Source: a bacterium
GTDB taxonomy: Bacteria; Omnitrophota; Gorgyraeia; Zapsychrales; Zapsychraceae
Length of the DNA stretch: 64,000 bases
Reading direction: 5' to 3'
Assembly: GCA_030429765.1 (NCBI GenBank)
Contig: JAUIER010000016.1
Span: 38,017-102,016, forward strand
The notes under the pieces were generated by a model. That model did no database searches, was not told where the DNA came from, and saw only the letters and a list, made by a program, of their open reading frames with translations. Position numbers and translations under genes: made by a program. Numbering within the stretch: position 1 is the stretch's first letter; each line of letters starts with the position of its first letter. Below, piece after piece: positions 2-49,449 of the stretch.

Positions 2-3000
2 GACTTTGACGGTTCACGACGCGTCTATCTGGAATCCAACCGGAATGTGACCGGCAGTTGGCGGCGGGAATTGCAGCCGGCCACGTTTGTGGAAAATCGC
101 GGCGGTCGCGCGGTTTACGAATTCAAAGTCCGGGCCCAGCGAAGCTTCGACTACAACTTTGTGTTTGTCAATGCCGACGGAACCGAGGAGTGGACGGATA
201 TTCCTTTTGGAAATCACACGGTTGAAGTCAAGAAACAGTATACGGCCGATGTTGTCTTTGTGGGGATGGAGCACAAACTCTTCGCGAAGGTTGGTGGATT
301 GGCGGATGTCATGCATAGTCTTCCCCGGGCGTTTGCCAAGTCCGGCAATGACACCACCGTTATCCTGCCACATTTTAAAAATTTAGACTATCAACTGGAA
401 GAATATGGATTCGAGGATGTGCCGGGTTTTGAGATTGAGATTCCTTTTAGACAAAGAGACAATGTTCGCCTGAAGGCCAAGCAGGCAATCGTCGAGGGAG
501 TCAAAGTCTATATTCTTGACGCCGAGACCGATGACTTATTCGGACAAATTTATAAAGATAACCGTAATATCTTTTTAGAATCTATCTTATTGTCACGTGG
601 CTCATTAGAGCTGCTCAGACATCTGGGCCGTCCGGTCAGTGTCATTAACTCCGCGGATCATCACGCCGCATTGGTTCCCCTATATATGGAAACCTTGTAT
701 AAGGATGACTTTAGTGAGACGGGTAGTGTTTTCACGATTCATAACTTTAGAAGTCAGGGAGATTATCCGCTCGAATGGTACGAAGAACTGGGTATGCCGT
801 TCGATGATGAATTGTATTATTCGTTCGCCAAGTATGGGCGAATCAATATGTTGAGCGTGCCCGGTGAGCTTTTACATCGGGTTGGAAAGGGGCATTACGT
901 TAATACTGTAAGCCAAGGTTATGCGCAGGAAATCCGTGAGGTGTTCTCGGATGTGGCTAATCTATACAGTGAGGCCGGTATACGTTTCGGCGGAATACTC
1001 AACGGGTTGGATTTTGAGGCCTGGGATCCTAACACCGATCCCAACATTGCCCGTAATTATTCATTGAGTGACGGGGCCGAATCCATTAAGGCCGCGCGCG
1101 AGCGGAACAAGAAGGAACTTCAATGGATTCTCTCACCAGAGGGAGACAAATCCTTAATCAAGCTTAAGGATCCGGCCAATGTTCACGGGGAGCTCACGAC
1201 CGAATCGGATCGTTTATTGGTGGGGGTGGTATCACGTCTGGATTCGCAAAAGCAGATTGATATCATCGCTGATATGCTCGAAGACATGTACGCCGGACGA
1301 CGGCCCGCATTGAATATTGACGTGCTAATAAATGGAACCGGTGATCCGGCTTTAACGCAGCGGCTTGCCGAAATCGCGTCGGACGCGCGTAAGCACAATA
1401 TCGGTATCTCGGTTGTATTTGTCAATGAGTACCTGCAGGTCTTGACCCAAAAGCTAATGGCGGGGGCGGATGTGCTTTTGATTCCATCCTATTTTGAGCC
1501 ATCCGGATTGACACAGATGCAGGCGATGCGCTACGGGGCTGTACCGGTTGTTCGACGGACAGGAGGGTTGGCTGATACGGTTTTCGAAGATCCCGAGCAT
1601 TGGAACGGATTTGTCTTCGAGGGCGCGGACCGGCTGCTTCATGATGAAGTCGAGGATATGAACCGACGCAAGATCAACACCTCGGGATTGTATGACGCGG
1701 TTTCCCGGGCGCAGGATGTTTATTACAATGATCCCGAAACATGGACAACAATTGTCGAGCAGGGAATGTCCGAAGAAAACGACTGGAACCGCAGCCTGAA
1801 CGATTACATGAATGTCTATGGATGGCTTTATGATGAGCGTCATCAGGATGTGCGGGGCGGGACGATATTGTCGGGTGACCAGGTTGTTAAAGACAAAGAC
1901 ACAGTGGTGCTTCGCGTCGCGGCGCACAGCCGCAGCAAGTCCCGTCGGGTGTATCTGCATTCCAACCGTAACGTGCTGGGCGAATGGGTTACAGACAAAA
2001 CTCCCGCGCGCTACGTCGAAACCATCGACGGGCAGGATATTTTTGAAGTCGAAGTCCAGGCGCGCCGAAATTTCGAATATACATTTGCCTTTGATTACGG
2101 CAACGATGATATTGTCTTTCTGGAACATAGTGAAGGCTATCCCAAGGTCACCATTGAGTCTGAGTTTACGGGAGCGGTGGCGTTTGTCGGCATGGAGTTT
2201 GGACCGCTCGTGAAAGTCGGCGGACAGGGTGATGTGATGTTTGAATTACCCAAGGCTTTGGTCAAATCCAACAAAGAGGTAGCCGTGGTGCTGCCAAAGT
2301 TTGACATACTTGAAGAAAAGTTGGCGGGTAAGGAGTTGGTCGAGATTGAAGATTGGAAGATGACGATTCCGTTTGAATATCGGGACGATGTCACGTTGCG
2401 GGCGTATGAAACGGATCTCGATGGTGTCAGGGTCATACTTATTGACGCTGATGCGCCGGATTTATTTATCCGGCCATATAATGTGGCTGAGGATGGTTCT
2501 CGCGATAGCGAATTTTATGAATCTATTTTATTGTCGCGGGGAAGTCTTGACGTACTACGGCATTTGAAGCGCGCAGGCAGTCTCGATGTTGATGTTATCA
2601 ATTCGGCGGACCATCATACGGCGCTGATCCCGCTTTACATGCGGCATACCTATGCCGAAGATTTCGCACGCACCGGCAATGTGTTTACGATCCATAATAT
2701 CGGCTATCAAGGTCGTTATGAACCGGAAATGTATTCGGAACTTGGGTTGGACGAATCGTTGCGGGATATGGTGCAAATCGGCGACGAGCTAGTTTTTATG
2801 GGGGTTCCACCCACCGTGATCAACCGATTAGGCAAGGAAGGCAACTATATCAATACCGTCAGTTCCAGTTATGCCAAGGAAACGCGACCGACACAGTTTG
2901 GACTGAACACGTCAGTGTTGCAATCTGTGGGCAATCGCTACGGCGGAATTCTGAACGGACTAGATTTTGACGTGTGGGATCCGGCCACGGATAAAATGAT

Positions 3001-6000
3001 CCACACCAACTACAGCATTACCGATGGCATGGACGCGGTATTGGAAGCCCGGGCGCAGAATAAACGCGAACTACAGGAGATACTTTCCGGCGAGGGTGAC
3101 CTCAGCGAGATCGGGATCAAGGATCTCAAGAATTTTAGCGGTCGGTTACGGGTGGGGTCGGATCGCATGCTTGTCGGGCTGGTTTCCAGATTGGTAGGGC
3201 AGAAGCAGATTGATATTATCGCCGACATGATTGATGACATGCTCAATGGCCGCAAAGAACAAATATCGGTCGATTTTGTTCTCAACGGTACCGGCGACTC
3301 GGATATCGAACAGCGATTGGCGGAGCTGGCAAAGAAAGTTGAAGAGGCGGGGTTAGACATGTCCTTTGCGTTTGTGAATGAATATCTTCAACCGGTCACA
3401 CAGAAGATTATGGCGGGCGCCGATGTGGTCCTGGTTCCGTCGGACTATGAGCCGAGTGGATTGACTCAAATGCAGGCCATGCGTTACGGGGCGGTGCCGG
3501 TTGTGCGTAATACCGGTGGATTAGCGGATACAGTCCATGAGCTGGGAGATAACTGGAGCGGTTTTGTCTTCGATGGTGTGCCGCGATTACTGGAGAATCC
3601 TGACGTCGATCAACGCCGTCGTCAGCAGAATGCCGATGATCTGTTCCTGGCCATCCGACGGGCGAATGAGGTTTATGTCAATGATCGTGAGCAGTGGCAT
3701 AAAATCATCAATACGGCGATGCGCGCGGAAAACGACTGGTCGCGCAGTTTGGGTGACTATCTCAATGTGTACACGTGGCTCACTGATGAGTTAAAACGTA
3801 AGGCCGATCCGGGCTTTGCGAAGATGTCCCGTACATTGTCGGCCAGTTATCAGGAATATCTGCGATCTGATCCTGAGCCCGGACGACCATTTGTCGTCGC
3901 GGTCAAAGGTAATTATGCCAGCGGCAAGTCAATGATGCGGCGGGCGCTGATGGATGAATTGGAAAAATTCGGACTGGTCGTCGATTTTGTCCACGATGAA
4001 TTTTATTTTGATGATCCAGCCGGTTACCACAGCATCGCTGATGCCGTTCGGTTGAAGAATGGTGTCAACATTCTGATTTATGAAATTGAACGGTATTTGC
4101 CGACGGGCGCCGATGAGATTGATATGTACATAGAGACCCGTAGCGAATTATCAACGGTCAAGCGTCGTATTGCGGCTGACAGCAAGAAATGGGAGGACCT
4201 GGAAGAACGGGTCCTGGCCAGCATGTCGGCTGAAGGGTTTAGCGCGTTGACGCCGGATGTCAGTATTCAGTTGGACACTCAATTAACGGATGACGAGTTT
4301 CGCGAATTCATCGGTGAGGGACTGGTGGAGATGAGCTTTACCAAAGCCCCGCCGGCCCGAGATTCCACGGCCAATGCGCGGTTGATGTCAGATACTCCCG
4401 CTGAGCTCACCAAAGAACGCCTTCGGGGGATTATCGAGCAACGGATGCCGTCGCGAACCAGTGGTGTATTGACGCATGTCAGTTCCTTGGACAGCGAATA
4501 CGGCATTGGTGACTTTGGTCCTTCAGCCCGCCGGTTTGTAGATTTTCTCATCGCGTCCAATCAGGATGTCTGGCAGGTTCTGCCACTGAATCCGACCGAC
4601 GCGGAGTTTAATCACTCCCCGTACAGCAGTGATTCCTCATTTGCGCTTAATCCATTGTTTGTGAGTCCAGACGATCTGGTTGAAATGGGTGTGTTGTCAT
4701 CCGAACAGATCACGAAATTCAGACGGCCGAATAATCGATTTGTCGACTACGACGCGGTCTCGGCTAACAAGCGGGAAATGCTTCGGCTGGCGTTTGACCA
4801 GCGTGAAGACGGACCCGGTGTGGTGCAGAAGTTTAAACGATTCAAAGCGCTTCACCGTGACTGGCTGGATCGATACGTGATGTACAGGGCGATCAGTGCG
4901 GCGCATGAAGGCCGGTCCTGGAATGAGTGGCCTGAAGGTCTGCGGGATCGACGGGCCAAAGCGTTGGTCGATTTCCGTGTTGATCATAAAGATGAAATTG
5001 AGTACTACGCGTTCGAACAGTTTTTGTTGTTTGAGCAATGGGGTAAGCTTCAAAAATATGCGCAGAAGGCGGGGGTCAAGATTCTGGGGGATCTTCCGTT
5101 GTATGTCAGTTATGACAGTGCTGATGTGTGGTCGAATAAAGAATTGTTTAATCTCGACGATGATTACAATCCAATCACTATATCCGGTGTGCCTCCGGAC
5201 GCCTTCAGCGCGGACGGACAGAAGTGGGGACATCCGACCTTTCATTGGCGTCGTATGCAGGCAAATGGATACCGTTGGTGGATGGAGCGAATCGCGCATA
5301 ATTTGCAGCTGTATGATCAGGTCCGCTTGGATCATTTCCGCGGACTGGTTCAGTACTGGTCTATTCCGGCCGATGCTGAGTCAGCCAATGCCGGGCATTG
5401 GGAACAGGCTGGAGATCAACACTTCTTCAGCTTGATAATTCAGCGTTTTGGCGTGGGACGTTTGATTGCTGAAGATTTGGGTGAGATCACACCGGACGTC
5501 ATAGAGGTACTCGAGCAGCTGGGTATCCGGCGCATGAAGATTCTTCAGTTTGGATTTGACGGTGAAAATCTCAGGGACAATACGTTTTTCCCGGAAAATT
5601 ATGACGAGAATTCCGTCGCCTACACCGGAACGCATGACAATAACACGATTCGCGGATGGTTCCGTCACGAACTTGGCGATCAAGCCCGTGAGAATCTACA
5701 ACGATTTCTGGGTAAAGATTTGATGGAGGAGCAGATCCACTGGGACATTATCCAGGCGGCGATGCGCTCGGGCGCTGAGACCGTGATCTTTCCACTGCAA
5801 GATGTATTCGGACTGGATGAATCCTCACGCATGAATTTGCCAGGGGTTGCCGCAGGTAACTGGACCTGGAGGATCAGCAGTGCGGATATGGATGCCGACA
5901 CCGTGCGGGAATTGGGAACGCTCAAGGCCACCACCCGTCCACCGCAGATAAAGTTGATGCGATCGGTCGGTATGAATCTGGTGAGCCGGGCGAGTAAATT

Positions 6001-6538
6001 CTTACGCGACAATAACTATGACGCACTGGCCCAAGAGCTAGAGCAGTTCAGCCGGCAGAATCGGATCAGAGAATGGGACTTCCGGCGTTTTGCCGCGGCG
6101 ACCTACAAAGATGATAACAATACAGAGTACATTTTGACTTCATCTGTTGATAGTGACGGTAAGAGGCTATCTGAAACTCAAAGGATTGCCAATTTGATCT
6201 TTGCTATCGGGGCCACGCAGAATTTTAATTTGGATGTGGATGTCAATGAGCGTCGTATGCAGGCCTATCTGGATCGTGCGATGAGCGCGGATACGGATGT
6301 CGGGGGGATCGATTTGAATCCGGATCTCATTCAACTGAACGTTGAGGGTGAGATGCCGTCCAATAATGCATTGAAGTACCCGTATGAGCTGCCGGTTCCC
6401 GTCGACATCAAGGGATTTGTGCCGGTAATTATTCAGATATCACCCGTACCGAACATACTCAATTATATGGGTGTAAACCTTCAACCCGGTGAGGTGCCGG
6501 GATACAATGATCAGCAACGGCTTTCGGCCGTTCGTTAA
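2..6538 (+). CDS. Giant multidomain alpha-glucan biosynthetic enzyme, 5'-partial. Domains in order: a starch-binding-like beta-sandwich, a glycogen/starch synthase GT5 module, a second beta-sandwich, a second GT5 module, a P-loop domain, a 4-alpha-glucanotransferase GH77 (amylomaltase) and a C-terminal module.
   Basis: There is no in-frame stop between nt 2 and the GTG at 47. The upstream frame reads SRRVYLESNRNVTGSW, which matches the internal repeat SRRVYLHSNRNVLGEWV at ~nt 1940, so the gene continues off the window. Glycogen-synthase motifs occur twice: KVGGLADV and KVGGQGDV, FTIHNFRSQG and FTIHNIGYQG, and EPSGLTQMQAMRYGAVPVVR(R/N)TGGLADTV. GH77 motifs are present: YGIGDFGP, WQVLPLNPT, SPYSSDSSFALNPLF, LDHFRGL, IAEDLGEITPDV, YTGTHDNNT and GNWTWR. 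Confidence 0.85.
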   Translation, partial: DFDGSRRVYLESNRNVTGSWRRELQPATFVENRGGRAVYEFKVRAQRSFDYNFVFVNADGTEEWTDIPFGNHTVEVKKQYTADVVFVGMEHKLFAKVGGLADVMHSLPRAFAKSGNDTTVILPHFKNLDYQLEEYGFEDVPGFEIEIPFRQRDNVRLKAKQAIVEGVKVYILDAETDDLFGQIYKDNRNIFLESILLSRGSLELLRHLGRPVSVINSADHHAALVPLYMETLYKDDFSETGSVFTIHNFRSQGDYPLEWYEELGMPFDDELYYSFAKYGRINMLSVPGELLHRVGKGHYVNTVSQGYAQEIREVFSDVANLYSEAGIRFGGILNGLDFEAWDPNTDPNIARNYSLSDGAESIKAARERNKKELQWILSPEGDKSLIKLKDPANVHGELTTESDRLLVGVVSRLDSQKQIDIIADMLEDMYAGRRPALNIDVLINGTGDPALTQRLAEIASDARKHNIGISVVFVNEYLQVLTQKLMAGADVLLIPSYFEPSGLTQMQAMRYGAVPVVRRTGGLADTVFEDPEHWNGFVFEGADRLLHDEVEDMNRRKINTSGLYDAVSRAQDVYYNDPETWTTIVEQGMSEENDWNRSLNDYMNVYGWLYDERHQDVRGGTILSGDQVVKDKDTVVLRVAAHSRSKSRRVYLHSNRNVLGEWVTDKTPARYVETIDGQDIFEVEVQARRNFEYTFAFDYGNDDIVFLEHSEGYPKVTIESEFTGAVAFVGMEFGPLVKVGGQGDVMFELPKALVKSNKEVAVVLPKFDILEEKLAGKELVEIEDWKMTIPFEYRDDVTLRAYETDLDGVRVILIDADAPDLFIRPYNVAEDGSRDSEFYESILLSRGSLDVLRHLKRAGSLDVDVINSADHHTALIPLYMRHTYAEDFARTGNVFTIHNIGYQGRYEPEMYSELGLDESLRDMVQIGDELVFMGVPPTVINRLGKEGNYINTVSSSYAKETRPTQFGLNTSVLQSVGNRYGGILNGLDFDVWDPATDKMIHTNYSITDGMDAVLEARAQNKRELQEILSGEGDLSEIGIKDLKNFSGRLRVGSDRMLVGLVSRLVGQKQIDIIADMIDDMLNGRKEQISVDFVLNGTGDSDIEQRLAELAKKVEEAGLDMSFAFVNEYLQPVTQKIMAGADVVLVPSDYEPSGLTQMQAMRYGAVPVVRNTGGLADTVHELGDNWSGFVFDGVPRLLENPDVDQRRRQQNADDLFLAIRRANEVYVNDREQWHKIINTAMRAENDWSRSLGDYLNVYTWLTDELKRKADPGFAKMSRTLSASYQEYLRSDPEPGRPFVVAVKGNYASGKSMMRRALMDELEKFGLVVDFVHDEFYFDDPAGYHSIADAVRLKNGVNILIYEIERYLPTGADEIDMYIETRSELSTVKRRIAADSKKWEDLEERVLASMSAEGFSALTPDVSIQLDTQLTDDEFREFIGEGLVEMSFTKAPPARDSTANARLMSDTPAELTKERLRGIIEQRMPSRTSGVLTHVSSLDSEYGIGDFGPSARRFVDFLIASNQDVWQVLPLNPTDAEFNHSPYSSDSSFALNPLFVSPDDLVEMGVLSSEQITKFRRPNNRFVDYDAVSANKREMLRLAFDQREDGPGVVQKFKRFKALHRDWLDRYVMYRAISAAHEGRSWNEWPEGLRDRRAKALVDFRVDHKDEIEYYAFEQFLLFEQWGKLQKYAQKAGVKILGDLPLYVSYDSADVWSNKELFNLDDDYNPITISGVPPDAFSADGQKWGHPTFHWRRMQANGYRWWMERIAHNLQLYDQVRLDHFRGLVQYWSIPADAESANAGHWEQAGDQHFFSLIIQRFGVGRLIAEDLGEITPDVIEVLEQLGIRRMKILQFGFDGENLRDNTFFPENYDENSVAYTGTHDNNTIRGWFRHELGDQARENLQRFLGKDLMEEQIHWDIIQAAMRSGAETVIFPLQDVFGLDESSRMNLPGVAAGNWTWRISSADMDADTVRELGTLKATTRPPQIKLMRSVGMNLVSRASKFLRDNNYDALAQELEQFSRQNRIREWDFRRFAAATYKDDNNTEYILTSSVDSDGKRLSETQRIANLIFAIGATQNFNLDVDVNERRMQAYLDRAMSADTDVGGIDLNPDLIQLNVEGEMPSNNALKYPYELPVPVDIKGFVPVIIQISPVPNILNYMGVNLQPGEVPGYNDQQRLSAVR

Positions 6539-6576
6539 CATATAGCTGTATAGACCAATTATCAGGAGACCAGACC

Positions 6577-9500
6577 ATGTCAAACGTATCTAAAAATCAA
6601 AAATTTAAAATTTGGGCCGCAGCCGCCCGGCTGATCATTGCGATGACGTTTATGCTATCGTCCGTAATGCCGGCAGGAATGGCGTTGGCGGACATTGATC
6701 GTTCAACGCTGGACAATATGAATATGGTACAGCCCGGCTCAATCGTCCGGCTGAGCGAGGCCTTTGAACCGGTCGTTCTTAAAGGGATCAATATTCGACC
6801 GGACCAGCCGTACACATTTGACTTTTTGGTCGATACCAACGGACACGACATGTCCGACGCCGAGTTTGAAGCGGAGTCGCAGAAGTTGATTAAGTATTTT
6901 TTGGCGTCGCTGACCATCCCCGAACAGGATATGTGGGTCAACTTGTCGCCATACGAAGCCAATCGCATGATCCCTGAAAGTTTTGGTCAAACCGAGATGG
7001 GACGTGATTTGCTGGCGCAGGATTATATGCTCAAGCAATTGACGGCTTCCTTGATGTATCCGGAAGATGAGTTAGGTCAAAAATTCTGGTCGCGGGTGCA
7101 AGACCTGGCGAACGAACAGTTCGGTACGCATGAACTGCCGATGAAGACATTTAACAAGGTCTGGATCGTTCCCGAGCAGGCGCGGGTTTATGAACATGAA
7201 CGCGGCGCGGTTGTGGTTGAGAGTTACTTGAATGTCATGTTGGAAGAGGATTACCTGGCGCTGGAAGCCAACGCAGGACGCACCAATCATGGTCTTGGTG
7301 ATGTCAGTGCGGATGAGCTGGTATCCAAGCAGGATGTATCCACGCGGGTAATCCGCGAGATTATTATACCTGAGATCGAACGTGAAGTGAACTCGGGTGA
7401 AACCTTTGCGAATCTCCGACAAATCTACAACTCGATGATCCTGGCAGTCTGGTACAAACGGGTCCTCAAAGAAAGTCTGTTAGGACAGATCTACATGGAC
7501 AAAGGTCGTGTCGAGGGAATTGCCCAGCCGAGTATTGAAGACAACCAAAAAATTTATGACATGTACGTCGAGGCGTTTAAGCGCGGTGTTTACAATTACA
7601 TCAAGGAAGATGTGGATCCGGCGACGAATCAGGTTGTCCCGCGGCAATATTTTTCCGGCGGTGCAGTCCCAATTACAGATCAGGCCGTGCTCGTCGAGCG
7701 CACAACCGCCGAAGAAACGCGGGCTGAACTGGAGCGAAGTCAAGTCCGGATGCTGACTGTCCGTATGGGACGTGTTCCGGACGTTAAACAAGACTACGCG
7801 GTGCTGGCGCAGGATCCTGAGCTTCAGCAGTTCTTAAGTGAGATTCGCGAGCCATCGAATAACGCCTTTACGGATATTTCGTTAGAAGCGGCGATCGCGG
7901 AACTCGAAGGTGAGGCCGAAGGAGCGCTCGGTAAAGGCGGTTTGGGATTCCTGACCGGTGATACGTGGGGAGCCTACAAGCATCTGAGTACGTATAGAGG
8001 TCTGGGCGTCATGCCATTGTATGATCGTCATTATAATCCCGGATCTGAATCGATTGATTGGGACAATCAGCCAGGCATTAAGCCGTTTATAGATCAATCG
8101 ACCGGAGAAGTTTTAACGTTCAATGTGGATTTCAATCTAGGCAGTTTTCCGGTTCAGATCTATTGGGTTAACCGAAACGGGATGCCAGTCTTTCTGATCC
8201 GCTCCGCCGACTTTTTCGGACAATTGTATCCCGGGGGCAACGCGCAGAAGCAGCAGTACGGTTTCTTGGCGCGAGCTTATGTGGAGCTCATGAAGAAACT
8301 GGAGATTGCTCCAAAGATTGTACGCTTAAGTGAGGGGCAGCTGGTTTTTGTTGGAACGGCTATGAAGAATGACGTGAAACATTTTAAAAATAATGGCGGT
8401 GAGAGTGTCTTTGACCAGGCCAAGATCGTATTTACAACGCATACGCCCGAAGCAGCGGCGTTGCCGATCTTTTATGACCTGGATGAGCTTGAGAATTTGG
8501 TCGGGCGGGATTTGTTCGAAGATATCATCGAGAATGGTCGAGTCAATGCAGCCAAGGCCCTGGCCGACATGGCGGATATCGTCAACGGTGTATCTGAAGA
8601 GCATGGTTCTGTAACCAAGGTTGCCGTGTTGCCCGAGTTCCGCAACAAAACCACTGCGATTCAAAACGGTAATGAAGAGGCGACGTGGTATTCCGGCCGA
8701 TTACGCGAGCATGTGGAAACAGTCGGGCTGGCCAATGTTACCGGTAAGGATCTCTTTGATATCGGCACAGAGATCAAACAAAATGATCTACAGCAATTGT
8801 TGCAGGATGAGTTCGGTGTAAAGTTTGCCGATCCGTCGAGGCCTCTGGTCGGTCTTGTTCGTCGACTGGTCGCTTATAAGGAACAGCAGATGTTCATTCC
8901 ATTGGTGAAATGGATTGTAGGTGACCCGAACAAGGATTACTACCATGATGAAACCGGTGACTATCTCGGCAAAGGGCTGGGAGCGAACCTCTTGATCGGA
9001 GGGCATTCGCTGGACGATGTCTCGCCGGTTTGGGTGCGTGAGTTCCGCCGGTTGATGCAGGAAGAAGATGTCAAAGGTAAGTTTCTTTATGTGGCCGGTA
9101 CCGGAATTGAATTGCGAAAACTGGCGGTAGCCGGTTCTGATATCTGGGTCAGTATTCCACGACCGACGCGTGAGGCTTCCGGAACCTCGGATGGAGCCGC
9201 TGCCCTGAATGGAACCGTCAATATTGCCACGGCAACGGGCGGTCCGCTGTCCTATATTAAGCATCGAAAAAATGGATGGCTTATCGATGTGTTTGCCGGA
9301 CAATCGCTGGATAATGTCACCCTGCGGTTTGATCAGGGGGATCACGATATTATCAAGGAATTTCAGTATGAAGGCGGAAGACAGCTGGCGACCGCACTGC
9401 GCGAATCGACCGAACGCCTAAACGATTACACGAGGCGCGGAAACACAGAGTGGTTAAAAACCATGCGCGCGTCGTTTACCGCGTCGCATCGTGAGGTGTC

Positions 9501-9858
9501 AATCGGGGTCATGATCCGCAAGTACGGACTGCTTTTTGACAGTGTCCTGGATGGGTCCGGAGCCGAGGGCTTTCGTGAGAAGATGGCTGCCTTCGACTTT
9601 ATCCCTGAGGGTGTCGAAACCGATTCGGCCTTACTAGCCGGTAAACCGGATGAGGTCGGGGGGATCGATTTGAATCCCGAGACCATGAATCTTTTGGTCG
9701 ACCGCGAAGGCCAGGGCTTGGTGGTTCCAGAATGGAAACCGATACCGGGCAGCGAGCGGATCCTCGGACTTCAGCCGATCATCCTCAATGTGACGCCTGT
9801 CGTCAATCTACCGCTGATTCTGGGGCTGAAAACCGTCGACACAGAGGCCGATGGCTAA
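6577..9858 (+). CDS. Alpha-glucan phosphorylase (GT35) homologue. It has an N-terminal signal or anchor, a ~430 aa unknown N-domain and a C-terminal module shared with the preceding gene. It is possibly non-catalytic, because there is no lysine in the EASGT motif.
   Basis: GGLGFLTGD...GLGVMPLYDR matches the GGLGxLAGD...LLYR motif of short alpha-glucan phosphorylases. TTHTPEAA and VNGVSEEHG are also present. EASGTSDGAAALNG occurs where EASGTSGMKAAMNG is expected. The N-terminus is KNQKFKIWAAAARLIIAMTFMLSSVMPAGMALA. An RBS (AGGAGA) precedes the ATG. Confidence 0.65.
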   Translation: MSNVSKNQKFKIWAAAARLIIAMTFMLSSVMPAGMALADIDRSTLDNMNMVQPGSIVRLSEAFEPVVLKGINIRPDQPYTFDFLVDTNGHDMSDAEFEAESQKLIKYFLASLTIPEQDMWVNLSPYEANRMIPESFGQTEMGRDLLAQDYMLKQLTASLMYPEDELGQKFWSRVQDLANEQFGTHELPMKTFNKVWIVPEQARVYEHERGAVVVESYLNVMLEEDYLALEANAGRTNHGLGDVSADELVSKQDVSTRVIREIIIPEIEREVNSGETFANLRQIYNSMILAVWYKRVLKESLLGQIYMDKGRVEGIAQPSIEDNQKIYDMYVEAFKRGVYNYIKEDVDPATNQVVPRQYFSGGAVPITDQAVLVERTTAEETRAELERSQVRMLTVRMGRVPDVKQDYAVLAQDPELQQFLSEIREPSNNAFTDISLEAAIAELEGEAEGALGKGGLGFLTGDTWGAYKHLSTYRGLGVMPLYDRHYNPGSESIDWDNQPGIKPFIDQSTGEVLTFNVDFNLGSFPVQIYWVNRNGMPVFLIRSADFFGQLYPGGNAQKQQYGFLARAYVELMKKLEIAPKIVRLSEGQLVFVGTAMKNDVKHFKNNGGESVFDQAKIVFTTHTPEAAALPIFYDLDELENLVGRDLFEDIIENGRVNAAKALADMADIVNGVSEEHGSVTKVAVLPEFRNKTTAIQNGNEEATWYSGRLREHVETVGLANVTGKDLFDIGTEIKQNDLQQLLQDEFGVKFADPSRPLVGLVRRLVAYKEQQMFIPLVKWIVGDPNKDYYHDETGDYLGKGLGANLLIGGHSLDDVSPVWVREFRRLMQEEDVKGKFLYVAGTGIELRKLAVAGSDIWVSIPRPTREASGTSDGAAALNGTVNIATATGGPLSYIKHRKNGWLIDVFAGQSLDNVTLRFDQGDHDIIKEFQYEGGRQLATALRESTERLNDYTRRGNTEWLKTMRASFTASHREVSIGVMIRKYGLLFDSVLDGSGAEGFREKMAAFDFIPEGVETDSALLAGKPDEVGGIDLNPETMNLLVDREGQGLVVPEWKPIPGSERILGLQPIILNVTPVVNLPLILGLKTVDTEADG

Positions 9859-10012: not shown

Positions 10013-10393
10013 ATGGTCGTCAGCTGCAAACAAATGAGGCATATCTGTAGTACAGTGATACTATCTTTGGCCGTTCTGGCCAGCACGGGACAGGCCGATG
10101 TTCGTCCGTTGACCGATGAGGAAATGGAGGAGATCGTCGCCGCTAACCTTCCGGTCGTTTCACCTGACAAAATCAACGCTGAGTTTTCCAGTCAAATAGC
10201 AGAGCTTGTCCAGACCATCACGGGTATCATCAATACTGGGATCAGTTCGGCGCTGGACAGCCAGGGCGGTTTAGTTCATATTAATGCCCTGAATTCCACG
10301 GCCAACGTGCAGATCAACTTTACGATCGGTGATCAACAGGCCGGGACATCCATCTACCAGTCCAATACCTATAATCCAACCAACAACCGATGA
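10013..10393 (+). CDS. Small secreted protein of unknown function
   Basis: An AAGGGGTGA RBS precedes the start. There is an internal signal peptide, ICSTVILSLAVLASTGQA. The stop overlaps the next gene's start (ATGA). Confidence 0.5.
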   Translation: MVVSCKQMRHICSTVILSLAVLASTGQADVRPLTDEEMEEIVAANLPVVSPDKINAEFSSQIAELVQTITGIINTGISSALDSQGGLVHINALNSTANVQINFTIGDQQAGTSIYQSNTYNPTNNR

Positions 10394-10884
10394 ACCGACG
10401 CACACGACAGTACGCGCATTTGAGACCATTGATTCGGACAGCGGGAGATTATCTGTCTATCCTGTTTCTCGTGACGGGTATCAGTGGTTGCACGCTCAAT
10501 GAACCGCCGTATGAGTATCTGCCGGATGGTACGTTTAGTTACAAGACCGGTCCGATTCCGGTGATGGAATCGGTCAGTGATCCGAATACGTACAAGGGTT
10601 ATGTTCAAATGAAGGTCAAGTTTAAGGCCGATGAATACACGGCGAGCAATAAATTTGATCAAGGCGGCAGTGTGTTTGTGTCATTTTGGGTCGATTCAAG
10701 CGGGCATGTCGTCAAGGTCAAAGTGGTGCCTGAAAGTTCCAGCGCGCCGAAAGCATTGTACAAGCCGGCCGAACAGATCATCTACGACGCCGGGCCGTTC
10801 AAGCCCTTTCCGGAGGATATCAAATCCTCGACGCTGCAGTTTAATCTGATCATCAACTTCAAAGTTTCCGATCCCGATCAATAA
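10390..10884 (+). CDS. Lipoprotein with a TonB-C-terminal-like domain
   Basis: The lipobox is LVTGISGC. The C-terminal region GGSVFVSFWVDSSGHVVKVKVV...PFKPFP resembles the TonB_C fold. Confidence 0.45.
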   Translation: MNRRTRQYAHLRPLIRTAGDYLSILFLVTGISGCTLNEPPYEYLPDGTFSYKTGPIPVMESVSDPNTYKGYVQMKVKFKADEYTASNKFDQGGSVFVSFWVDSSGHVVKVKVVPESSSAPKALYKPAEQIIYDAGPFKPFPEDIKSSTLQFNLIINFKVSDPDQ

Positions 10885-10926
10885 AGAGCTTTTGGTCACG
10901 CCTGATTTGTGTATAATAGTAGGCCT

Positions 10927-12936
10927 ATGCGAACAATTCTCTGCCGTTATACAAGTCTGTTGATCCTTTCGGTTGTTGTCGTTGCCTGCGGCCAAACACC
11001 GCCGCCCCGATCGGCCGAACCTGTGGTCAGTTCCAAAATTTCATTGATGGATGAATGGCTCAAGGGGTACGAGCTGCCCGAACCAAGTTTTGAAATACAG
11101 AACCCGGGTAAGCCTGACGTATTGGATTATTCGGAATACGGCGAGTTTATCAATTTAGGGAAGAAGGGATACAAATTCAAGATCAAGGATCGTGACCGGC
11201 TAAAACAGGATATCGGACAGGGGATTTATCCCAACCAAAACGGTGTGCGTCAGGATGAGAATTTCAAGGCCATGTCGGAGCAAGGATTGATGAAGGAATC
11301 GCATTGGGATCTGCTCAAACATGAAAACGCGCAGCTGGCCTTCTACAAGTGGGCTACCGTTGGTGATGATCCCGGCGTTAAAGCGTTTTTTACCGGTCAA
11401 ATCCTGGAGCGGTCGGGCCATATCCTGCATGCGATCAAATCTTACTACGCGGCCGTCGTGCATTTTCCGAAATCAGCGGCCTGGGCGGCCGATGGGAGTT
11501 TTGTATGGTACATCGCGCCGGCGGCCATGGGATCCATCAAACGTCTGTGCCGCGATTATCCGGACCTGAATTTAGAATACCTGGACTATATGTTTTCCAT
11601 TGAAAACGGCGGGGATACCAACCTGGGCAATGATATTGTCGCGGTGCACCCCGGACGCTTTATCCAGAAAACATTTGACGAAAAATTGGCGGACAGGCCT
11701 GACTTTGATTCGCTCAAGATTGTTGAGCGGCGCGGGGACGGCAAGGTCCAGTTGGTCAAGTATGAAAACGGCCACTGGCAAATGCTCGTCGACAATAAAC
11801 CGTTTATGGTGCGGGGGGTTACTTATGGGCCGACTCAGATCGGGTTGGGACCGTTGGATGATTTTCATTATGATGTCCGCTGGATGCGTTCCGATGTGAA
11901 CGGAAACGGGATTGTTGATGCGCCCTATGAGGCGTGGGTGGACAAAAATCAGAACGGTGTTCAGGATGCGGATGAGCCGGCTGTCGGAGATTTTCAGCTG
12001 ATGAAGGACATGGGAGTCAACGCGATTCGATATTACATCACCAACGGCACGCGGACGGAGTATGATCCCGACCTGATCAACAAGGAATTGTTGCGCGATA
12101 TGTATGAGACATACGGGATTCGCCTGATCGCCGGCGATTTTTTGGGGGCGTACACCGTCGGATCAGGGGCAGATTGGGAGGCCGGTACGGATTACACGGA
12201 TCCCAAGCAGTTGAAATTCATGAAGGAAATCGTCCGTCAAAAGGTTCTGGATCTCAAGGATGAACCCTTTCTGTTGATGTGGCTGCTGGGTAATGAGAAT
12301 AATATGGGTAGCGGCAATCGCGGTGTTAATGCCACCCGCACGCTGGCCGACAAACAGCCCGAGGCCTATGCCAAGTTCCTCAATGAAGTCGCGGAAATGA
12401 TCCATGAGCTCGATCCGGACCATCCCGTTGCGATCGGTAATTTGGGTACAGGCCTGCTGGAGTATTATGGTAAGTATTCGCCGGCCATTGACATCATGGG
12501 CGTTAATGCGTACATGGGCGGTGGTGGTTTCGGTATCATGTGGGACGAGGTCAAGCGCGTGTTTGACCGTCCGGTGATGGTCACGGAGTATGGCGTGGAT
12601 GCGTTTGATGAGAACTTGAAGGATACAAATGAGACCGCGCAAAGCGAGTACCACTATGGCAACCTCAGGGATATCGTGATCAATCAGGCCGGCGGCATTT
12701 ACGCGGGCAATTCCATCGGCGGGATCATTTTTGAATATCTCGACGAGTGGTGGAAGGATACACATGGTCATCCGGTGACCGAGCAGCAACGCGAACCTCA
12801 ATATCCATCCGCGGCCTTCGACGGGTACAATCACGAAGAGTGGTTCGGGATCGTCGGGCAGGGGACGGGACGGCACAGTCCGTTTGAACGCCATCTGCGC
12901 GAAACATACTTTATGTACCAAAAGTACTGGCAATAA
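10927..12936 (+). CDS. Clan GH-A (GH5/GH2-like TIM-barrel) glycoside hydrolase lipoprotein with an inserted dockerin-like Ca-binding pair
   Basis: The lipoprotein signal is MRTILCRYTSLLILSVVVVACGQ. The ORF could start at the GTG at 10909. The LLGNENN motif fits the acid/base NE, and VTEYGVDAF fits the nucleophile TE. DVNGNGIVDA and DKNQNGVQDAD are Ca-binding loops. Confidence 0.6.
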   Translation: MRTILCRYTSLLILSVVVVACGQTPPPRSAEPVVSSKISLMDEWLKGYELPEPSFEIQNPGKPDVLDYSEYGEFINLGKKGYKFKIKDRDRLKQDIGQGIYPNQNGVRQDENFKAMSEQGLMKESHWDLLKHENAQLAFYKWATVGDDPGVKAFFTGQILERSGHILHAIKSYYAAVVHFPKSAAWAADGSFVWYIAPAAMGSIKRLCRDYPDLNLEYLDYMFSIENGGDTNLGNDIVAVHPGRFIQKTFDEKLADRPDFDSLKIVERRGDGKVQLVKYENGHWQMLVDNKPFMVRGVTYGPTQIGLGPLDDFHYDVRWMRSDVNGNGIVDAPYEAWVDKNQNGVQDADEPAVGDFQLMKDMGVNAIRYYITNGTRTEYDPDLINKELLRDMYETYGIRLIAGDFLGAYTVGSGADWEAGTDYTDPKQLKFMKEIVRQKVLDLKDEPFLLMWLLGNENNMGSGNRGVNATRTLADKQPEAYAKFLNEVAEMIHELDPDHPVAIGNLGTGLLEYYGKYSPAIDIMGVNAYMGGGGFGIMWDEVKRVFDRPVMVTEYGVDAFDENLKDTNETAQSEYHYGNLRDIVINQAGGIYAGNSIGGIIFEYLDEWWKDTHGHPVTEQQREPQYPSAAFDGYNHEEWFGIVGQGTGRHSPFERHLRETYFMYQKYWQ

Positions 12937-12977
12937 TTTTTGACGATATCGATTTCCTGCCTATTCTCCGATCTTCT

Positions 12978-13931
12978 ATGAACATGACCCCCGAGAAAAT
13001 TGAGCATCATGCCACCTTGTTGTGTAATCGTGTCAAGAAGCGATACGCGCATTTGCGCAAACGTTTTGCCCGACGACAAATCGACTGTTTTCGTCTGTAC
13101 GATTGGGATATTCCCGAAGTGCGGGCGGTCGTGGATTGGTACGCGGGGCATCTGGTCGTGGCCGAGTATGTGCGGACACAAACCGGTCCTGACTGGCTTC
13201 CGGCGATGGCTGCGGCGTTGTCCAAGGCTATGGAGATTTCCTCAGATCGGGTTCACATCAAGCGACGTCAAACCAAGTCAGGATCCGGACTGCGGTATTC
13301 ACGGCTCGCCGAGACCAATCAGCGTTTCATTGTTCACGAGCGCGATCTTAAGTTTTGGATCAACTGCGAAGATTTTCTGGACACGGGATTGTTTTCGGAT
13401 CATCGGGACACGCGTCTGATGGTGCAGGATCTCGCGGAAGGTAAACGATTTTTAAACCTATTCGCCTACACCGGCGCCTTCACATGCGCCGCTGCCTCGG
13501 GAGGTGCGGTAAACTGCACCACTGTCGATCGATCGGATACGTACATTTCCTGGGCCAAGGATAATCTGGTCTTGAACGGCTTGTGGAACGATGCCCACGA
13601 TTTGGTGCAGTCCGATGTCTTTGAGTTTCTGCGGCAGCAGCGTAAATTGGCGAAACGCTACGATCTATGCGTGGTTGACCCGCCGTCGTTTTTCAGGGAC
13701 GATAAGCGGAATGTGAATTTTGATGTCAATAAGGACCATATCCGCTTGCTGGAAAACGTGATCAAGGTGATGGATCAGGGGGGAATAGTCTTTTTTTCAA
13801 CCAATCACCAAAAGTTCAAATCCCGTCTTCGCCGGCTGGATGTTGCCCAGATGATGGAACTGACGCCAAAGTCTATCCCCGAGGATTATCGGAATCGGCA
13901 GATTCATCGGTGTTGGAAGATTACTGTTTAG
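12978..13931 (+). CDS. Class I SAM-dependent rRNA methyltransferase (RlmI/RlmK-like)
   Basis: Motifs LYDWDIPEV, NLFAYTGAFTCAAASGGA and VVDPPSF are typical of PF10672-type 23S rRNA methyltransferases. Confidence 0.6.
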   Translation: MNMTPEKIEHHATLLCNRVKKRYAHLRKRFARRQIDCFRLYDWDIPEVRAVVDWYAGHLVVAEYVRTQTGPDWLPAMAAALSKAMEISSDRVHIKRRQTKSGSGLRYSRLAETNQRFIVHERDLKFWINCEDFLDTGLFSDHRDTRLMVQDLAEGKRFLNLFAYTGAFTCAAASGGAVNCTTVDRSDTYISWAKDNLVLNGLWNDAHDLVQSDVFEFLRQQRKLAKRYDLCVVDPPSFFRDDKRNVNFDVNKDHIRLLENVIKVMDQGGIVFFSTNHQKFKSRLRRLDVAQMMELTPKSIPEDYRNRQIHRCWKITV

Positions 13932-49211: not shown

Positions 49212-49385
49212 ATGTCCAAGCAAGAAGAACGCTGCGATTGCGGCAAATTGCTGTTCAAGCTCACCCCGCGAGGGTTAGAATTTAAGTGTAACCGCTGCAA
49301 AGAGATCCATTTGGTTCCCTTGTATCGGATAGACACTGAATTTCGCAATATCTGTCCGGTTATTGACCAGACGCACAAAAAATAA
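49212..49385 (+). CDS. Com-family (phage Mu Com-like) zinc-finger small protein, 57 aa
   Basis: MSKQEERCDCGKLLFKLTPRGLEFKCNRCKEIHLV matches the Mu Com signature C-x-C-x-KLLFK...C-x-RCK. It is not in the supplied ORF track because it is shorter than 60 aa. Confidence 0.55.
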   Translation: MSKQEERCDCGKLLFKLTPRGLEFKCNRCKEIHLVPLYRIDTEFRNICPVIDQTHKK

Positions 49386-49449
49386 CCGCAGAGACTCGAG
49401 ATCACGAATCCTAAGTCCAAAACAAAGATGTCGAAAGAAAGGAAAGACT

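Follow-up and report, generated by a model that had tools for sequence, protein, structure and literature searches.

The gene described here encodes a protein of 1093 aa whose catalytic domain, judged from alignments and predicted structure, falls into a so far undescribed family that is the sister of the short, TIGR02094-type GT35 phosphorylases and in which the lysine that binds pyridoxal phosphate (PLP) has been lost. This Schiff-base lysine is K680 in the rabbit enzyme and K646 in E. coli MalP and, to our knowledge, it holds PLP in every characterised alpha-glucan phosphorylase. We refer to the family as Arg-type; it was defined in this analysis and is not curated, and its members carry the GT35 motifs and have Arg, or any residue other than Lys, at the column of the PLP lysine. 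The query fits this definition, and its closest relatives are all of that type. The features found in the window, i.e., the whole stretch of 64,000 nucleotides that was analysed, are collected in Table 1.

Table 1. Positions of the query gene, its parts and its upstream neighbour (nucleotides of the window; residues of the query protein)
Feature	Residues	Nucleotides	Strand	Remarks
GlgA-GlgA-Walker-A segment-MalQ (GH77)-C module gene		2..6538	+	5' end cut by window edge
Shine-Dalgarno AGGAG		6564..6568	+	8 nt 5' of ATG; read from sequence
Whole ORF	1093 aa + stop	6577..9858	+	Frame intact
Sec-type signal peptide (predicted)	1-38	6577..6690	+	n/h/c regions; heuristic
N module, Omnitrophota-specific	39-365	6691..7671	+	Mixed alpha/beta; 603 bits to N-module HMM
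Linker, variable, poorly predicted	366-410	7672..7806	+	53% identity to orthologue vs 76% in flanking modules
GT-B catalytic domain, Arg-type (PLP-lysine-less) GT35-like family	411-1005	7807..9591	+	
GKGGLGFLTGD glycine loop	452-462	7930..7962	+	GGLGxLAGD of TIGR02094 phosphorylases
TTHTPEAA	620-627	8434..8457	+	His622 = substrate-binding His316 of ScGP
RRLVAYKE		8860..8883	+	Arg762, Arg763, Lys768 = phosphate-binding Arg507, Arg508, Lys513 of ScGP
FLYVAGTG strand		9082..9105	+	Thr842 at Tyr/Phe column of E-D/N-Y strand
EASGTSDGAAALNG	866-879	9172..9213	+	Glu866 kept; Ala874 (GCC, 9196-9198) at PLP Schiff-base lysine position
C module	~1015-1093	9619..9855	+	69.9 bits to C-module HMM

The gene product and its PLP-lysine site

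Along the protein, a signal peptide is followed by an N module, a linker, a GT35-like GT-B domain and a C module, and the N-terminus of the ORF is in register with the N-termini of aligned homologues. The first-pass annotation had assigned the C-terminal two-thirds to the phosphorylase part, which was too much: the domain spans aa ~411-1005, or ~55% of the protein. The N-terminal region of ~430 aa, which had been described as one unknown domain, is indeed additional to the phosphorylase part, but it is not a single domain and consists of the 38-aa signal peptide, a module of ~325 aa and the variable linker. A conserved C-terminal module of ~70 aa was absent from that description.

The assignment to GT35-type homologues was well founded. 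All motifs quoted for it are present, including PLYDR (aa 480-484), VNGVSEEHG (aa 669-677) and EASGTSDGAAALNG, the last exactly at nt 9172-9213, and glycogen phosphorylase of Segatella copri (ScGP, PDB 9L6I) is the best match in both sequence and structure. The AF2 model has pLDDT of ~85-95 over aa 411-1005 and a phosphorylase-type GT-B fold with two Rossmann domains; its best Foldseek matches are ScGP (E 3e-26) and E. coli GlgP/MalP, with top E-values ranging from 1e-26 to 1e-21. The roles of His316, Arg507, Arg508 and Lys513 in ScGP are taken from PMC12912991. The equivalents of the three phosphate-binding residues are invariant in 119/119 Arg-type domains and in 12/12 Lys-type relatives, whereas His622 and Glu866, together with the same three, are invariant across the 20 orthologues as well as the 119 Arg-type domains. 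The NGVS-EH and QNG motifs are also unchanged in the query.

At the cofactor site, EASGTSDGAAALNG is placed against EASGTSGEKAEMNG of ScGP both by pairwise alignment with phmmer and by a profile built from 20 family sequences. The PLP lysine of that enzyme is Lys609 (PMC12912991), and it pairs with Ala874, as counted off the printed alignment. No alignment puts a Lys at the PLP site, in agreement with the earlier observation that none is available there. One explanation is an artefact, i.e., an error in sequencing or assembly or a pseudogene that is decaying. However, the closest homologue, an orthologue that is 72% identical and comes from the independent run SRR23272297 (P0001), also reads EASGTSDGAAALNG; a sequencing error in this region is excluded because the same motif is found in another sample. 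In addition, the frame of 1093 codons is intact and preceded by a Shine-Dalgarno sequence, and the nonsynonymous divergence is much lower than the synonymous divergence. We consider that an artefact is almost certainly not the explanation.

The comparison of the query with its orthologue yielded pN of 0.157 for the catalytic domain, versus pS of 0.835, with synonymous sites being saturated. The catalytic domain and the N module are under equally strong purifying selection.

The pattern of substitutions in the Arg-type family

Among ~175 aligned relatives, the PLP-Lys column contains Arg in 135, Lys in 15 (canonical TIGR02094 enzymes) and other residues in ~25. The nearest ~30 homologues of the query read EASGTS[DQH][QE]R; the query and P0001 have Ala, and in the wider family the position is variously filled by L, M, G, A, V, I, D or C. 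Judging from this alignment, the loss of lysine is a trait of the whole family and is not private to the query gene, and the Ala of the query is a secondary change from the family Arg. Of all strongly conserved positions, only the PLP-Lys column distinguishes Arg-type from Lys-type domains, and nowhere in the domain does the family alignment show another conserved Lys that is peculiar to Arg-type members.

A second position is also affected. In the rabbit enzyme, the Tyr of the E-D/N-Y strand stacks on PLP. This column is occupied by Tyr or Phe in 12/12 Lys-type sequences, compared to Ser or Thr in 81/119 Arg-type sequences; the query, like ~90% of Arg-type enzymes, has lost the Tyr.

In a search of 1.84 billion proteins, only 722 representatives matched at E<=1e-3. 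The Arg-type family was found in Omnitrophota, Patescibacteria, Sedimentisphaerales and Elusimicrobia, including domains within ORFs of at least 7298 and at least 5794 aa. The annotation of its members is inconsistent, being 'glycogen/starch synthase' at NCBI versus 'glucan phosphorylase' at JGI; therefore, metabolic reconstructions of Omnitrophota and CPR that count these proteins as GlgP or GlgA may be wrong. The family also bears on the old question of why a glycosyltransferase fold adopted PLP, for which a proto-GT35 using NDP-sugars is still a hypothesis (PMC11046441). A conserved, selected clade that keeps the phosphorylase active site and has Arg or Ala instead of the lysine represents a set of natural variants to assay, and because these variants are available, the question is directly testable.

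Candidate functions in the genomic context

The query gene has the same orientation as the GlgA-GlgA-MalQ gene and begins 38 nt after it. The upstream polyprotein carries the same C module as the query, with GGIDLNP at 6302-6322. This arrangement is kept in another locus (L001), where the upstream orthologue has 4026 aa and also contains the branching enzyme GlgB; it should be noted that GlgB was seen only in this polyprotein, which is itself uncertain. The locus of the query encodes two genuine GlgA domains and lacks a phosphorylase.

In this context, we tentatively favour an alpha-1,4-glucan enzyme that would be active without covalent PLP and would use chemistry of the Pi/G1P type, a reading that we regard as possible and place somewhat short of even chances. 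Glucose would move between the end of a glucan chain and a phosphate group, as in the Pi/glucose-1-phosphate reaction, and the query would fill the GlgP/MalP slot beside GlgA-GlgA-MalQ. In the Arg-type family, the PLP lysine is replaced by Arg (Ala in the query) and the aromatic residue of the Tyr column mostly by Ser or Thr, with the glucan- and phosphate-binding residues kept. The acid/base catalyst of GT35 enzymes is the 5'-phosphate of covalently attached PLP (PMC11046441), and because of this role the removal of PLP should cripple phosphorolysis unless it is replaced. The architecture, the distribution of residues in the family, the conserved positions, the purifying selection and the gene neighbourhood are observed, whereas we infer catalytic competence, the identity of donor and acceptor, and a substitute for the acid/base role of the 5'-phosphate. 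Against an active enzyme, it can be said that any part assigned to the family Arg falls away in the query, which no longer has this residue, and that the query scores below the cut-offs for both TIGR02094 (77.3 bits, over aa 750-983 only, versus the curated 191.7) and the GlgA model TIGR02095 (32.5 versus 328 bits); Pfam PF00343 has no match in the query at E<=0.01.

The same subthreshold scores for both enzyme families would suit a pseudoenzyme, i.e., a non-catalytic, alpha-glucan-binding or scaffold subunit of the adjacent glycogen polyprotein. Furthermore, the cofactor-binding residue of GT35 is gone, the query is without even the family Arg, and the scatter of residues at the PLP-Lys column would fit relaxed constraint. 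Conversely, residues that serve chemistry only (Arg762, Arg763, Lys768, His622 and Glu866) are invariant in the query and in 119 diverged Arg-type domains, the catalytic domain is selected as strongly as the N module, and the phosphate-binding triad is not expected to survive under a binding-only role. We consider the pseudoenzyme somewhat unlikely. The first-pass annotation had proposed either a pseudo-phosphorylase scaffold or changed chemistry; the former is the weaker of the two, given the invariant residues and the low pN. The conservation of the remaining catalytic residues, together with purifying selection on the domain, makes an enzyme with altered cofactor or donor chemistry likelier than a dead scaffold.

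An altered donor is the essence of another explanation, a glucan synthase that uses NDP-sugars, in which the former PLP pocket would bind the NMP part of ADP-, UDP- or GDP-glucose. Such an enzyme would be GT5/GT3-like with GT35 motifs, and may represent a surviving or reverted 'proto-GT35'; according to a hypothesis on record in a 2024 Chem Rev review (PMC11046441), PLP replaced the nucleoside monophosphate of an NDP-sugar-dependent proto-GT35. Several observations are consistent with this scenario: (i) the N-terminal Rossmann half matches Pfam PF08323, Glyco_transf_5, over aa 512-675 and above the gathering score (36.4 versus 22.7 bits); (ii) in Foldseek with the AF2 model, starch synthases are covered at TM 0.76, with a fully superposable core; (iii) small Ser/Thr-Gly residues stand in place of the aromatic residue, and the positive charge of Arg would suit a diphosphate; and (iv) NCBI names favour a synthase, as opposed to the JGI names. 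However, the locus already has its GlgA domains and lacks a phosphorylase, the phosphate motif is the RRxxYK of GT35 and not the SRLxxQK of GT5, and no adenine- or uracil-binding signature was found. In addition, the query is without the Arg. We regard an NDP-sugar synthase as unlikely.

It is also conceivable that the query is an ordinary PLP-dependent phosphorylase in which PLP is held non-covalently or on a different lysine. The imine is not itself catalytic, as borohydride-reduced phosphorylase is active, and the remaining active-site residues of the query are canonical. Nevertheless, there is no conserved Arg-type-specific Lys in the domain and the Tyr column is gone, and a Sec-exported protein would be expected to fold away from the cytoplasmic PLP pool. 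This explanation is quite improbable. The preferred reading, activity of the Pi/G1P type without covalent PLP, has a difficulty of its own in the predicted location of the protein: an exported location would lack nucleotide sugars and ATP for the neighbouring cargo enzymes, so that the predicted topology is hard to square with the metabolic reading.

The N...C cassette and comparison with known systems

The query protein is probably exported. The basic stretch and hydrophobic segment, which had been read as a signal or an anchor, correspond to an n-region whose basic residues are K6, K9, K11 and R18, followed by a hydrophobic core that spans aa 19-31; the c-region reads PAGMALA, and cleavage is predicted between Ala38 and Asp39. 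The -1 position is Ala in 81/88 aligned N-module proteins, PP precedes the c-region, and 79 of the 88 pass a crude, heuristic signal-peptide rule. Both the cleavage and the extracytoplasmic location are putative.

The N module (AF2 pTM 0.77) recurs, at 50-60% identity, at the N-terminal end of many proteins whose cargo is unrelated. The C module contains GGIDLNP (9658-9678), a beta-hairpin, the hydrophobic, proline-containing ILGLQPIILNVTPVVNLPLILGL (9760-9828) and a short acidic tail. No match to either module was found in Pfam, NCBIfam or PDB. Both are present in 114 of 120 homologues among the matches listed, and in 63 ORFs across 79 genome loci. We defined proteins with an N module right after the signal peptide and a C module at the extreme C-terminus as N...C cassette proteins, a class that is not curated and that includes the query. 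In Omnitrophota, the enzymes flanked by the N...C pair are diverse and of the cytoplasmic type, with PGI, PGM, hexokinase and GlgA among them. The pairing around many different enzymes suggests, therefore, that both modules relate to targeting or anchoring and not to glucan chemistry. Such a cassette on cytoplasm-type enzymes with predicted Sec signals bears on the use of the proteome by host-dependent nanobacteria.

A broader scenario, which we consider rather unlikely, would combine these results. The Arg-type family would be a PLP-free branch of the phosphorylase lineage that is widespread in nature, being either a proto-GT35 survivor or reversion, or enzymes in which the cofactor phosphate is otherwise replaced. 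In Omnitrophota, it would also be cassette cargo, with the whole glycogen/hexose-phosphate pathway (GlgA, MalQ, the GT35-like enzyme, PGM, PGI, hexokinase and UGPase, with GlgB in L001 only) exported as signal peptide-N module-cargo-C module to the periplasm or to prey cells.

Compared to ScGP, the query shares GGLGxLxGD, (T)HTP, NGVSxxH, RRxxxYK and EASGTS, with the four functional residues kept. It differs in the PLP lysine (Ala in the query, Arg in the family), in the Tyr of the E-D-Y strand (Thr), in the missing Lys of GKAHP and in being fused to the signal peptide and to the N and C modules. The distance from TIGR02094 phosphorylases is evident from the scores of true Lys-type relatives, 525 and 474 bits for P0238 and P0244, versus 77 bits for the query. 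With GT5 GlgA, for example Arabidopsis SSIV (PDB 6GNE), the query shares the GT-B core and the predicted absence of PLP, and it is encoded beside genuine GlgA domains. However, PF08323 is the only GT5 model whose threshold it passes, and its versions of the GT5 motifs KxGGL, SRLxxQKG and EPxGL are those of GT35, for example EASGTS and not EPxGL.

Glycogen phosphorylase reconstituted with pyridoxal is activated by free phosphite or phosphate. A non-covalent anion could replace the 5'-phosphate in this way, which is a possible model for an Arg-lined pocket, although the reconstituted enzyme depends on a lysine-bound pyridoxal ring and the query has no such Arg.

The giant multi-enzyme proteins of Omnitrophota (10.1101/2023.11.21.568195; 10.64898/2026.06.07.730766) come from the same phylum and, in the available parts of these reports, share predictions of signal peptides or TM segments and the cargo types starch synthase, PGM, hexokinase, ROK, HATPase_c, radical SAM and HEAT; the query, in contrast, has a single cargo and 1.1 kaa. 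The available parts of West-Roberts 2023 and Nielsen & Lui 2026 make no mention of the N and C modules or of a lysine-less GT35-like domain. The 79 loci showed no internal N/C repeats of the kind expected if the giants were simply N...C units strung together.

Chlamydia GlgP is canonical and PLP-dependent, and other glycogen enzymes of Chlamydia trachomatis are secreted in addition to its phosphoglucomutase. According to the accessible portion of PMC9251005, this bacterium, which like Omnitrophota belongs to PVC, stores glycogen in the vacuole lumen, and its phosphoglucomutase is a type 3 secretion substrate. The two systems thus have in common that cytoplasm-type glycogen enzymes are bound outside the cytoplasm, in our case as predicted from export-type signals on GlgA, MalQ, PGM, PGI, hexokinase and the GT35-like protein. 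The difference is in the route: type III signals are used in Chlamydia, whereas a predicted Sec-type signal is combined with novel N and C modules here.

The cofactor site of the query protein

We compared the query protein with Segatella copri glycogen phosphorylase (ScGP, PDB 9L6I), its closest solved structure by sequence; a profile built from 20 family sequences matches ScGP over the whole length (E 3e-24). In ScGP, Lys609 is the PLP lysine, and H316, R507, R508 and K513 are substrate and phosphate ligands (PMC12912991). The corresponding query residues in the printed alignment are Ala874, His622, Arg762, Arg763 and Lys768; thus, the PLP lysine is absent and the other ligand residues are present, in agreement with the lysine loss proposed in the first-pass annotation. 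All motifs quoted in that annotation were recovered at their positions, including the cofactor-site motif EASGTSDGAAALNG. A sequencing error at 9172-9213, which the same annotation had set against its own reading, is excluded because P0001, the closest homologue (72% identity to the query), comes from an independent sequencing run and has the identical motif. Together with the intact frame and pN << pS, this motif rules out a pseudogene as well, and an artefact of any kind has a negligible chance of explaining the observation. The N-terminus of the query lines up with the N-termini of its homologues in the alignment.

Curated models recognise the query only weakly: it reaches 77.3 bits with TIGR02094 (cut-off 191.7; match confined to aa 750-983), about 30 bits with GlgA models, and 36.4 bits with Pfam Glyco_transf_5 (aa 512-675). 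In the AlphaFold2 model, based on the orthologue alignment, aa 411-1005 are confident (pLDDT about 85-95). In a Foldseek search of the PDB with this model, ScGP is the top match (E 3e-26), ahead of E. coli GlgP/MalP and mammalian phosphorylases; starch synthases (SSIV 6GNE, GBSS) come next at E 1e-21 but are covered almost completely, with a target-normalised TM of 0.76. The modelled domain is thus a compact GT-B core, as large as that of a short phosphorylase or of a synthase.

Relatives with arginine at the lysine position

All of the ~30 closest homologues have the pattern EASGTS[DQH][QE]R[AW]G[FL]NG, with Arg at the lysine position; Ala is found in the query and P0001 only. Using the catalytic part alone (aa 405-1010), we searched 1.84 billion representative proteins with HMMER; no more than 722 passed E<=1e-3, and 59 of these passed E<=1e-30. 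Neither a look-up of the exact query sequence nor a genome scan with this single sequence gave a match. When all retrieved relatives were aligned to the family HMM, the PLP-Lys column contained Arg in 135 cases, Lys in 15, and L/G/M/A/V/I/E/D/C/Q in about 25. By these counts, the lysine loss is a character of the family, beyond the query alone. The Lys-bearing relatives are the most distant matches and are ordinary TIGR02094 phosphorylases (474-525 bits). Domains with a residue other than Lys, mostly Arg, at this column (Arg-type) score 65-130 bits on TIGR02094 in nine of the ten scanned, P0143 being slightly over the cut-off at 202.8, and 23-65 bits on GlgA among the scanned proteins.

We then compared 119 Arg-type with 12 Lys-type domains; among the strongly conserved columns, only two distinguish the groups, the PLP-Lys column and an Ala/Gly column at aa 567. 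In the E-D/N-Y strand, one column is Tyr/Phe in 12/12 Lys-type domains and Ser/Thr in 81/119 Arg-type domains (Thr842 in the query); in the rabbit enzyme, this Tyr presumably stacks against the PLP ring. In the alignment, the change in the Tyr column accompanies that of the PLP lysine as a second change. PLP bound non-covalently is very unlikely. A displaced lysine that still binds PLP was also considered and is ruled out, since this comparison revealed no conserved Lys specific to the Arg-type domain. In a smaller part of the family, the cofactor column carries L, M, G, V, I, C or D in place of Lys or Arg (P0146, P0173, P0184, P0222, P0230, P0233, P0239 and P0246); these proteins are mostly ~520 aa long, the named ones are from Patescibacteria, many retain the Tyr column, and they may represent a further subfamily.

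Beyond Omnitrophota, Arg-type domains occur as stand-alone ~520-aa proteins in Patescibacteria (Falkowbacteria, Paceibacterota, Sungbacteria, Liptonbacteria), and also in Sedimentisphaerales and Elusimicrobia. Database names for them disagree: they are "glycogen/starch synthase" in NCBI PGAP and "glucan/starch/glycogen phosphorylase" in JGI and other sources (P0150, P0154, P0156, P0170, P0260 and P0288-P0300, with hosts including Patescibacteria, Sedimentisphaerales and Elusimicrobia). The domain is also embedded, at about residue 3300, in giant Omnitrophota ORFs of at least 7298 aa (L006 2-21895) and 5794 aa (L007 56-17437), where the cofactor-site motif reads EASGTSDQRAALNG and EASGTSDNRAALNG, respectively. 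No description of a GT35 protein lacking the PLP lysine was found in the literature, and the Arg-type family is apparently undescribed so far.

End modules, predicted export and gene neighbourhood

The N-terminal domain that the first-pass annotation listed as unknown is a genuine addition; it consists of a signal and a module recurring on unrelated proteins, and a further module at the C-terminus had been overlooked. BLAST of the query against its best 120 database matches separated three independently conserved blocks: aa 1-362, with 50-60% identity to proteins with unrelated middle parts; the GT35-like part, common to only about 33 of these matches; and aa ~1015-1090. Both end modules are present in 114 of the best 120 matches, with the C module at the extreme C-terminus. 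Neither the ~325-aa N module nor the ~70-aa C module has a match in Pfam, NCBIfam or PDB. In consensus, the C module reads VGGIDLNPALLDLQIKRDGKGVPLPLSQQPIENMNIEGFVPVIINVTPVTNLPLLLGL (GGIDLNP...GFVPVIINVTPVxNLPLLLG across the Omnitrophota cassettes) and closes with an acidic tail; within the query, its proline-containing end ranks second in hydrophobicity among all stretches.

A scan of GTDB species representatives for the modules gave at least 578 confirmed matches. The 79 retained loci, at least 11 of them from one MAG, are nearly all labelled Omnitrophota, with some MAGs labelled Planctomycetales or Elusimicrobia; they contain 63 ORFs (680 to 3361 aa) that start with the N module and end with the C module, often in same-strand tandem arrays. 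Among the variable, cytoplasm-type cargo enclosed by the two modules are phosphoglucose isomerase, phosphoglucomutase, UDP-glucose pyrophosphorylase, hexokinase, fructose-bisphosphatase, ROK kinases and GlgA, as well as HATPase_c, HEAT repeats, DnaJ, radical SAM and GGDEF. Because passages of a giant-protein preprint give about one TM helix per 1000 aa in giant Omnitrophota proteins, we considered that these might be in-frame chains of N-cargo-C units; this is not supported, as no internal N or C modules were found in any ORF of the 79 loci or 139 representatives. Passages of two such preprints (10.1101/2023.11.21.568195, 10.64898/2026.06.07.730766) report the same cargo Pfams and frequent signal-peptide/TM predictions, and these passages mention neither the modules nor the lysine-less domain. 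No description of the modules was found in the literature, and the Omnitrophota N...C architecture is apparently undescribed so far.

The signal or anchor seen at the N-terminus in the first pass follows a Sec-type pattern. Across the family, a K/R-rich n-region leads into a 15-16-residue hydrophobic core, PP and finally (V/A/S)-x-A|Q, the -1 residue being Ala in 81/88 aligned N-module proteins; in the query, the predicted cleavage site is ALA|D after residue 38. This is predicted to be a textbook Sec signal, which in turn predicts that the query and many N...C proteins with hexokinase, PGM, UGPase or GlgA exit the cytoplasm. Export is in tension with the cargo chemistry, because several cargo enzymes need ATP, UTP or ADP-glucose. 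A precedent for extracytoplasmic glycogen metabolism is the PVC member Chlamydia trachomatis: according to PMC9251005, its glycogen is deposited in the lumen of the inclusion, and its phosphoglucomutase is a substrate of type III secretion. Passages of a giant-protein preprint describe Omnitrophota as host-dependent or predatory, and the proteins predicted to be exported may act in the periplasm, at the cell surface or inside prey. One could speculate that a Sec-exported phosphorylase would fold without access to the PLP of the cytoplasm, a situation that would favour an enzyme free of the cofactor. The Lys-to-Arg change need not be tied to export, because the ~520-aa Patescibacteria Arg-type proteins start directly with the catalytic domain, without an N module.

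Features of the window referred to in the text
Feature	Position	Strand	Remarks
Upstream gene	2-6538	+	Cut by the window edge, since its frame is open from window base 2; 38 nt before the query gene
Shine-Dalgarno AGGAG of the query ORF	6564-6568	+	Read from sequence
Query ORF	6577-9858	+	1093 aa
N...C end modules on the query	6577-7671 and 9619-9855	+	Also in loci L002-L080
Cofactor-site motif	9172-9213	+	Exact codons of the query ORF
Four downstream genes	10013-13931	+	Synteny shared with L001, the locus of the P0001 orthologue
Other window genes	25189-26841, 20282-21775, 47243-49069, 49363-51747	+	

The visible 2178 aa of the upstream gene product comprise two GlgA domains, a kinase-like segment with a Walker-A motif (GNYASGKS), a GH77 4-alpha-glucanotransferase (MalQ) and a C module (GGIDLNP at 6302). 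By eye, the short beta-rich segment in front of each GlgA domain resembles a starch-binding module. The syntenic counterpart next to P0001 (4026 aa, extending past the fetched locus) adds a CBM48/GH13 branching enzyme (GlgB) and about 1100 further N-terminal residues. The locus thus provides for elongation and disproportionation, and in the L001 orthologue also for branching, ahead of the GT35-like protein; since the neighbours encode GlgA-GlgA-MalQ, plus the branching enzyme in L001, the query occupies the usual GlgP/MalP position. Neither the window nor the 1.3 Mb of fetched loci contains a Lys-type phosphorylase, but this is a biased sample with little bearing on whole genomes. The downstream genes encode a small secreted protein (126 aa, with a signal peptide, matching no family), a TonB_C-like protein of 164 aa, a GH2_C-like protein of 675 aa with a weak GH2 TIM-barrel match, and a SAM-dependent methyltransferase (PF10672).

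An orthologous GlgA-GlgA-MalQ-C-module gene, P0306 (L081 1678-7959), has no GT35-like gene after it in L081. It was set aside as an example of a C module without an N module, because a gene upstream (2-1735) overlaps it by 58 nt and touches the contig end; the overlap could be a frameshift splitting a longer polyprotein. Elsewhere, the window encodes an outer-membrane protein of the Pom type (Protochlamydia), which fits a PVC envelope, a fusion of a T2SS/T4P ATPase with a response-regulator receiver, a CysN/CysC-like fusion of an EF-Tu-like GTPase with an APS-kinase domain, and a TonB-dependent receptor.

Proposed activity and comparison with GT35 and GT5

Residues E586, H622, E675, H676, Q696, N697, G698, R762, R763, Y767, K768, E866 to S871, N878 and G879 are invariant in 20 orthologues, and the key residues of this set are also invariant in the wider Arg-type set. 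Between the catalytic domain and its L001 orthologue, the non-synonymous difference is 0.157, and synonymous sites are saturated at 0.835; the N module shows a matching pattern. Such a low pN relative to a saturated pS indicates the behaviour of a working protein. The first-pass annotation had offered a pseudo-phosphorylase scaffold or an enzyme with altered chemistry; the conserved active site and the pN and pS values favour the latter and weaken the former. The retained phosphate-binding triad likewise argues for chemistry over mere glucan binding, and we consider a pseudoenzyme somewhat unlikely.

We infer that the query would be an active alpha-1,4-glucan glucosyl-transferring enzyme without covalently bound PLP. 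A phosphorylase-like reaction (Pi/G1P) is tentatively favoured for it, because the phosphate-binding motif specific to GT35 is intact, two synthases are already encoded by the neighbouring gene, and the place beside MalQ is the MalP/GlgP slot. In GT35 enzymes, the PLP 5'-phosphate is the acid/base catalyst (PMC11046441). A replacement for it would therefore be needed, which is the main chemical objection to the Pi/G1P reading. The Arg of the Arg-type family could hold a free anion in its place; pyridoxal-reconstituted phosphorylase is reportedly rescued by phosphite. The query lacks even the family Arg (Ala874), which is at odds with an Arg-held anion. The leading rival among active enzymes, unlikely in our estimate, is an NDP-glucose-dependent synthase with the nucleotide in the old PLP pocket. 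The GT5-like N-domain match of the query, the apparently enlarged pocket and the split database annotations are consistent with such a synthase, and the same idea, a nucleotide in the later PLP site, is recorded as a hypothesis for "proto-GT35" in a review (PMC11046441).

With natural phosphorylase homologues that lack the PLP lysine and are under selection, experiments can test how PLP came into this enzyme class and whether it is necessary there. By curated score and cofactor lysine, the query falls outside GT35, with which it shares the fold and most catalytic residues; by score and motifs, it falls outside GT5. It has RRxxYK instead of the SRLxxQK of GT5, and EASGTS instead of EPxGL, so that its motifs are of the GT35 type.
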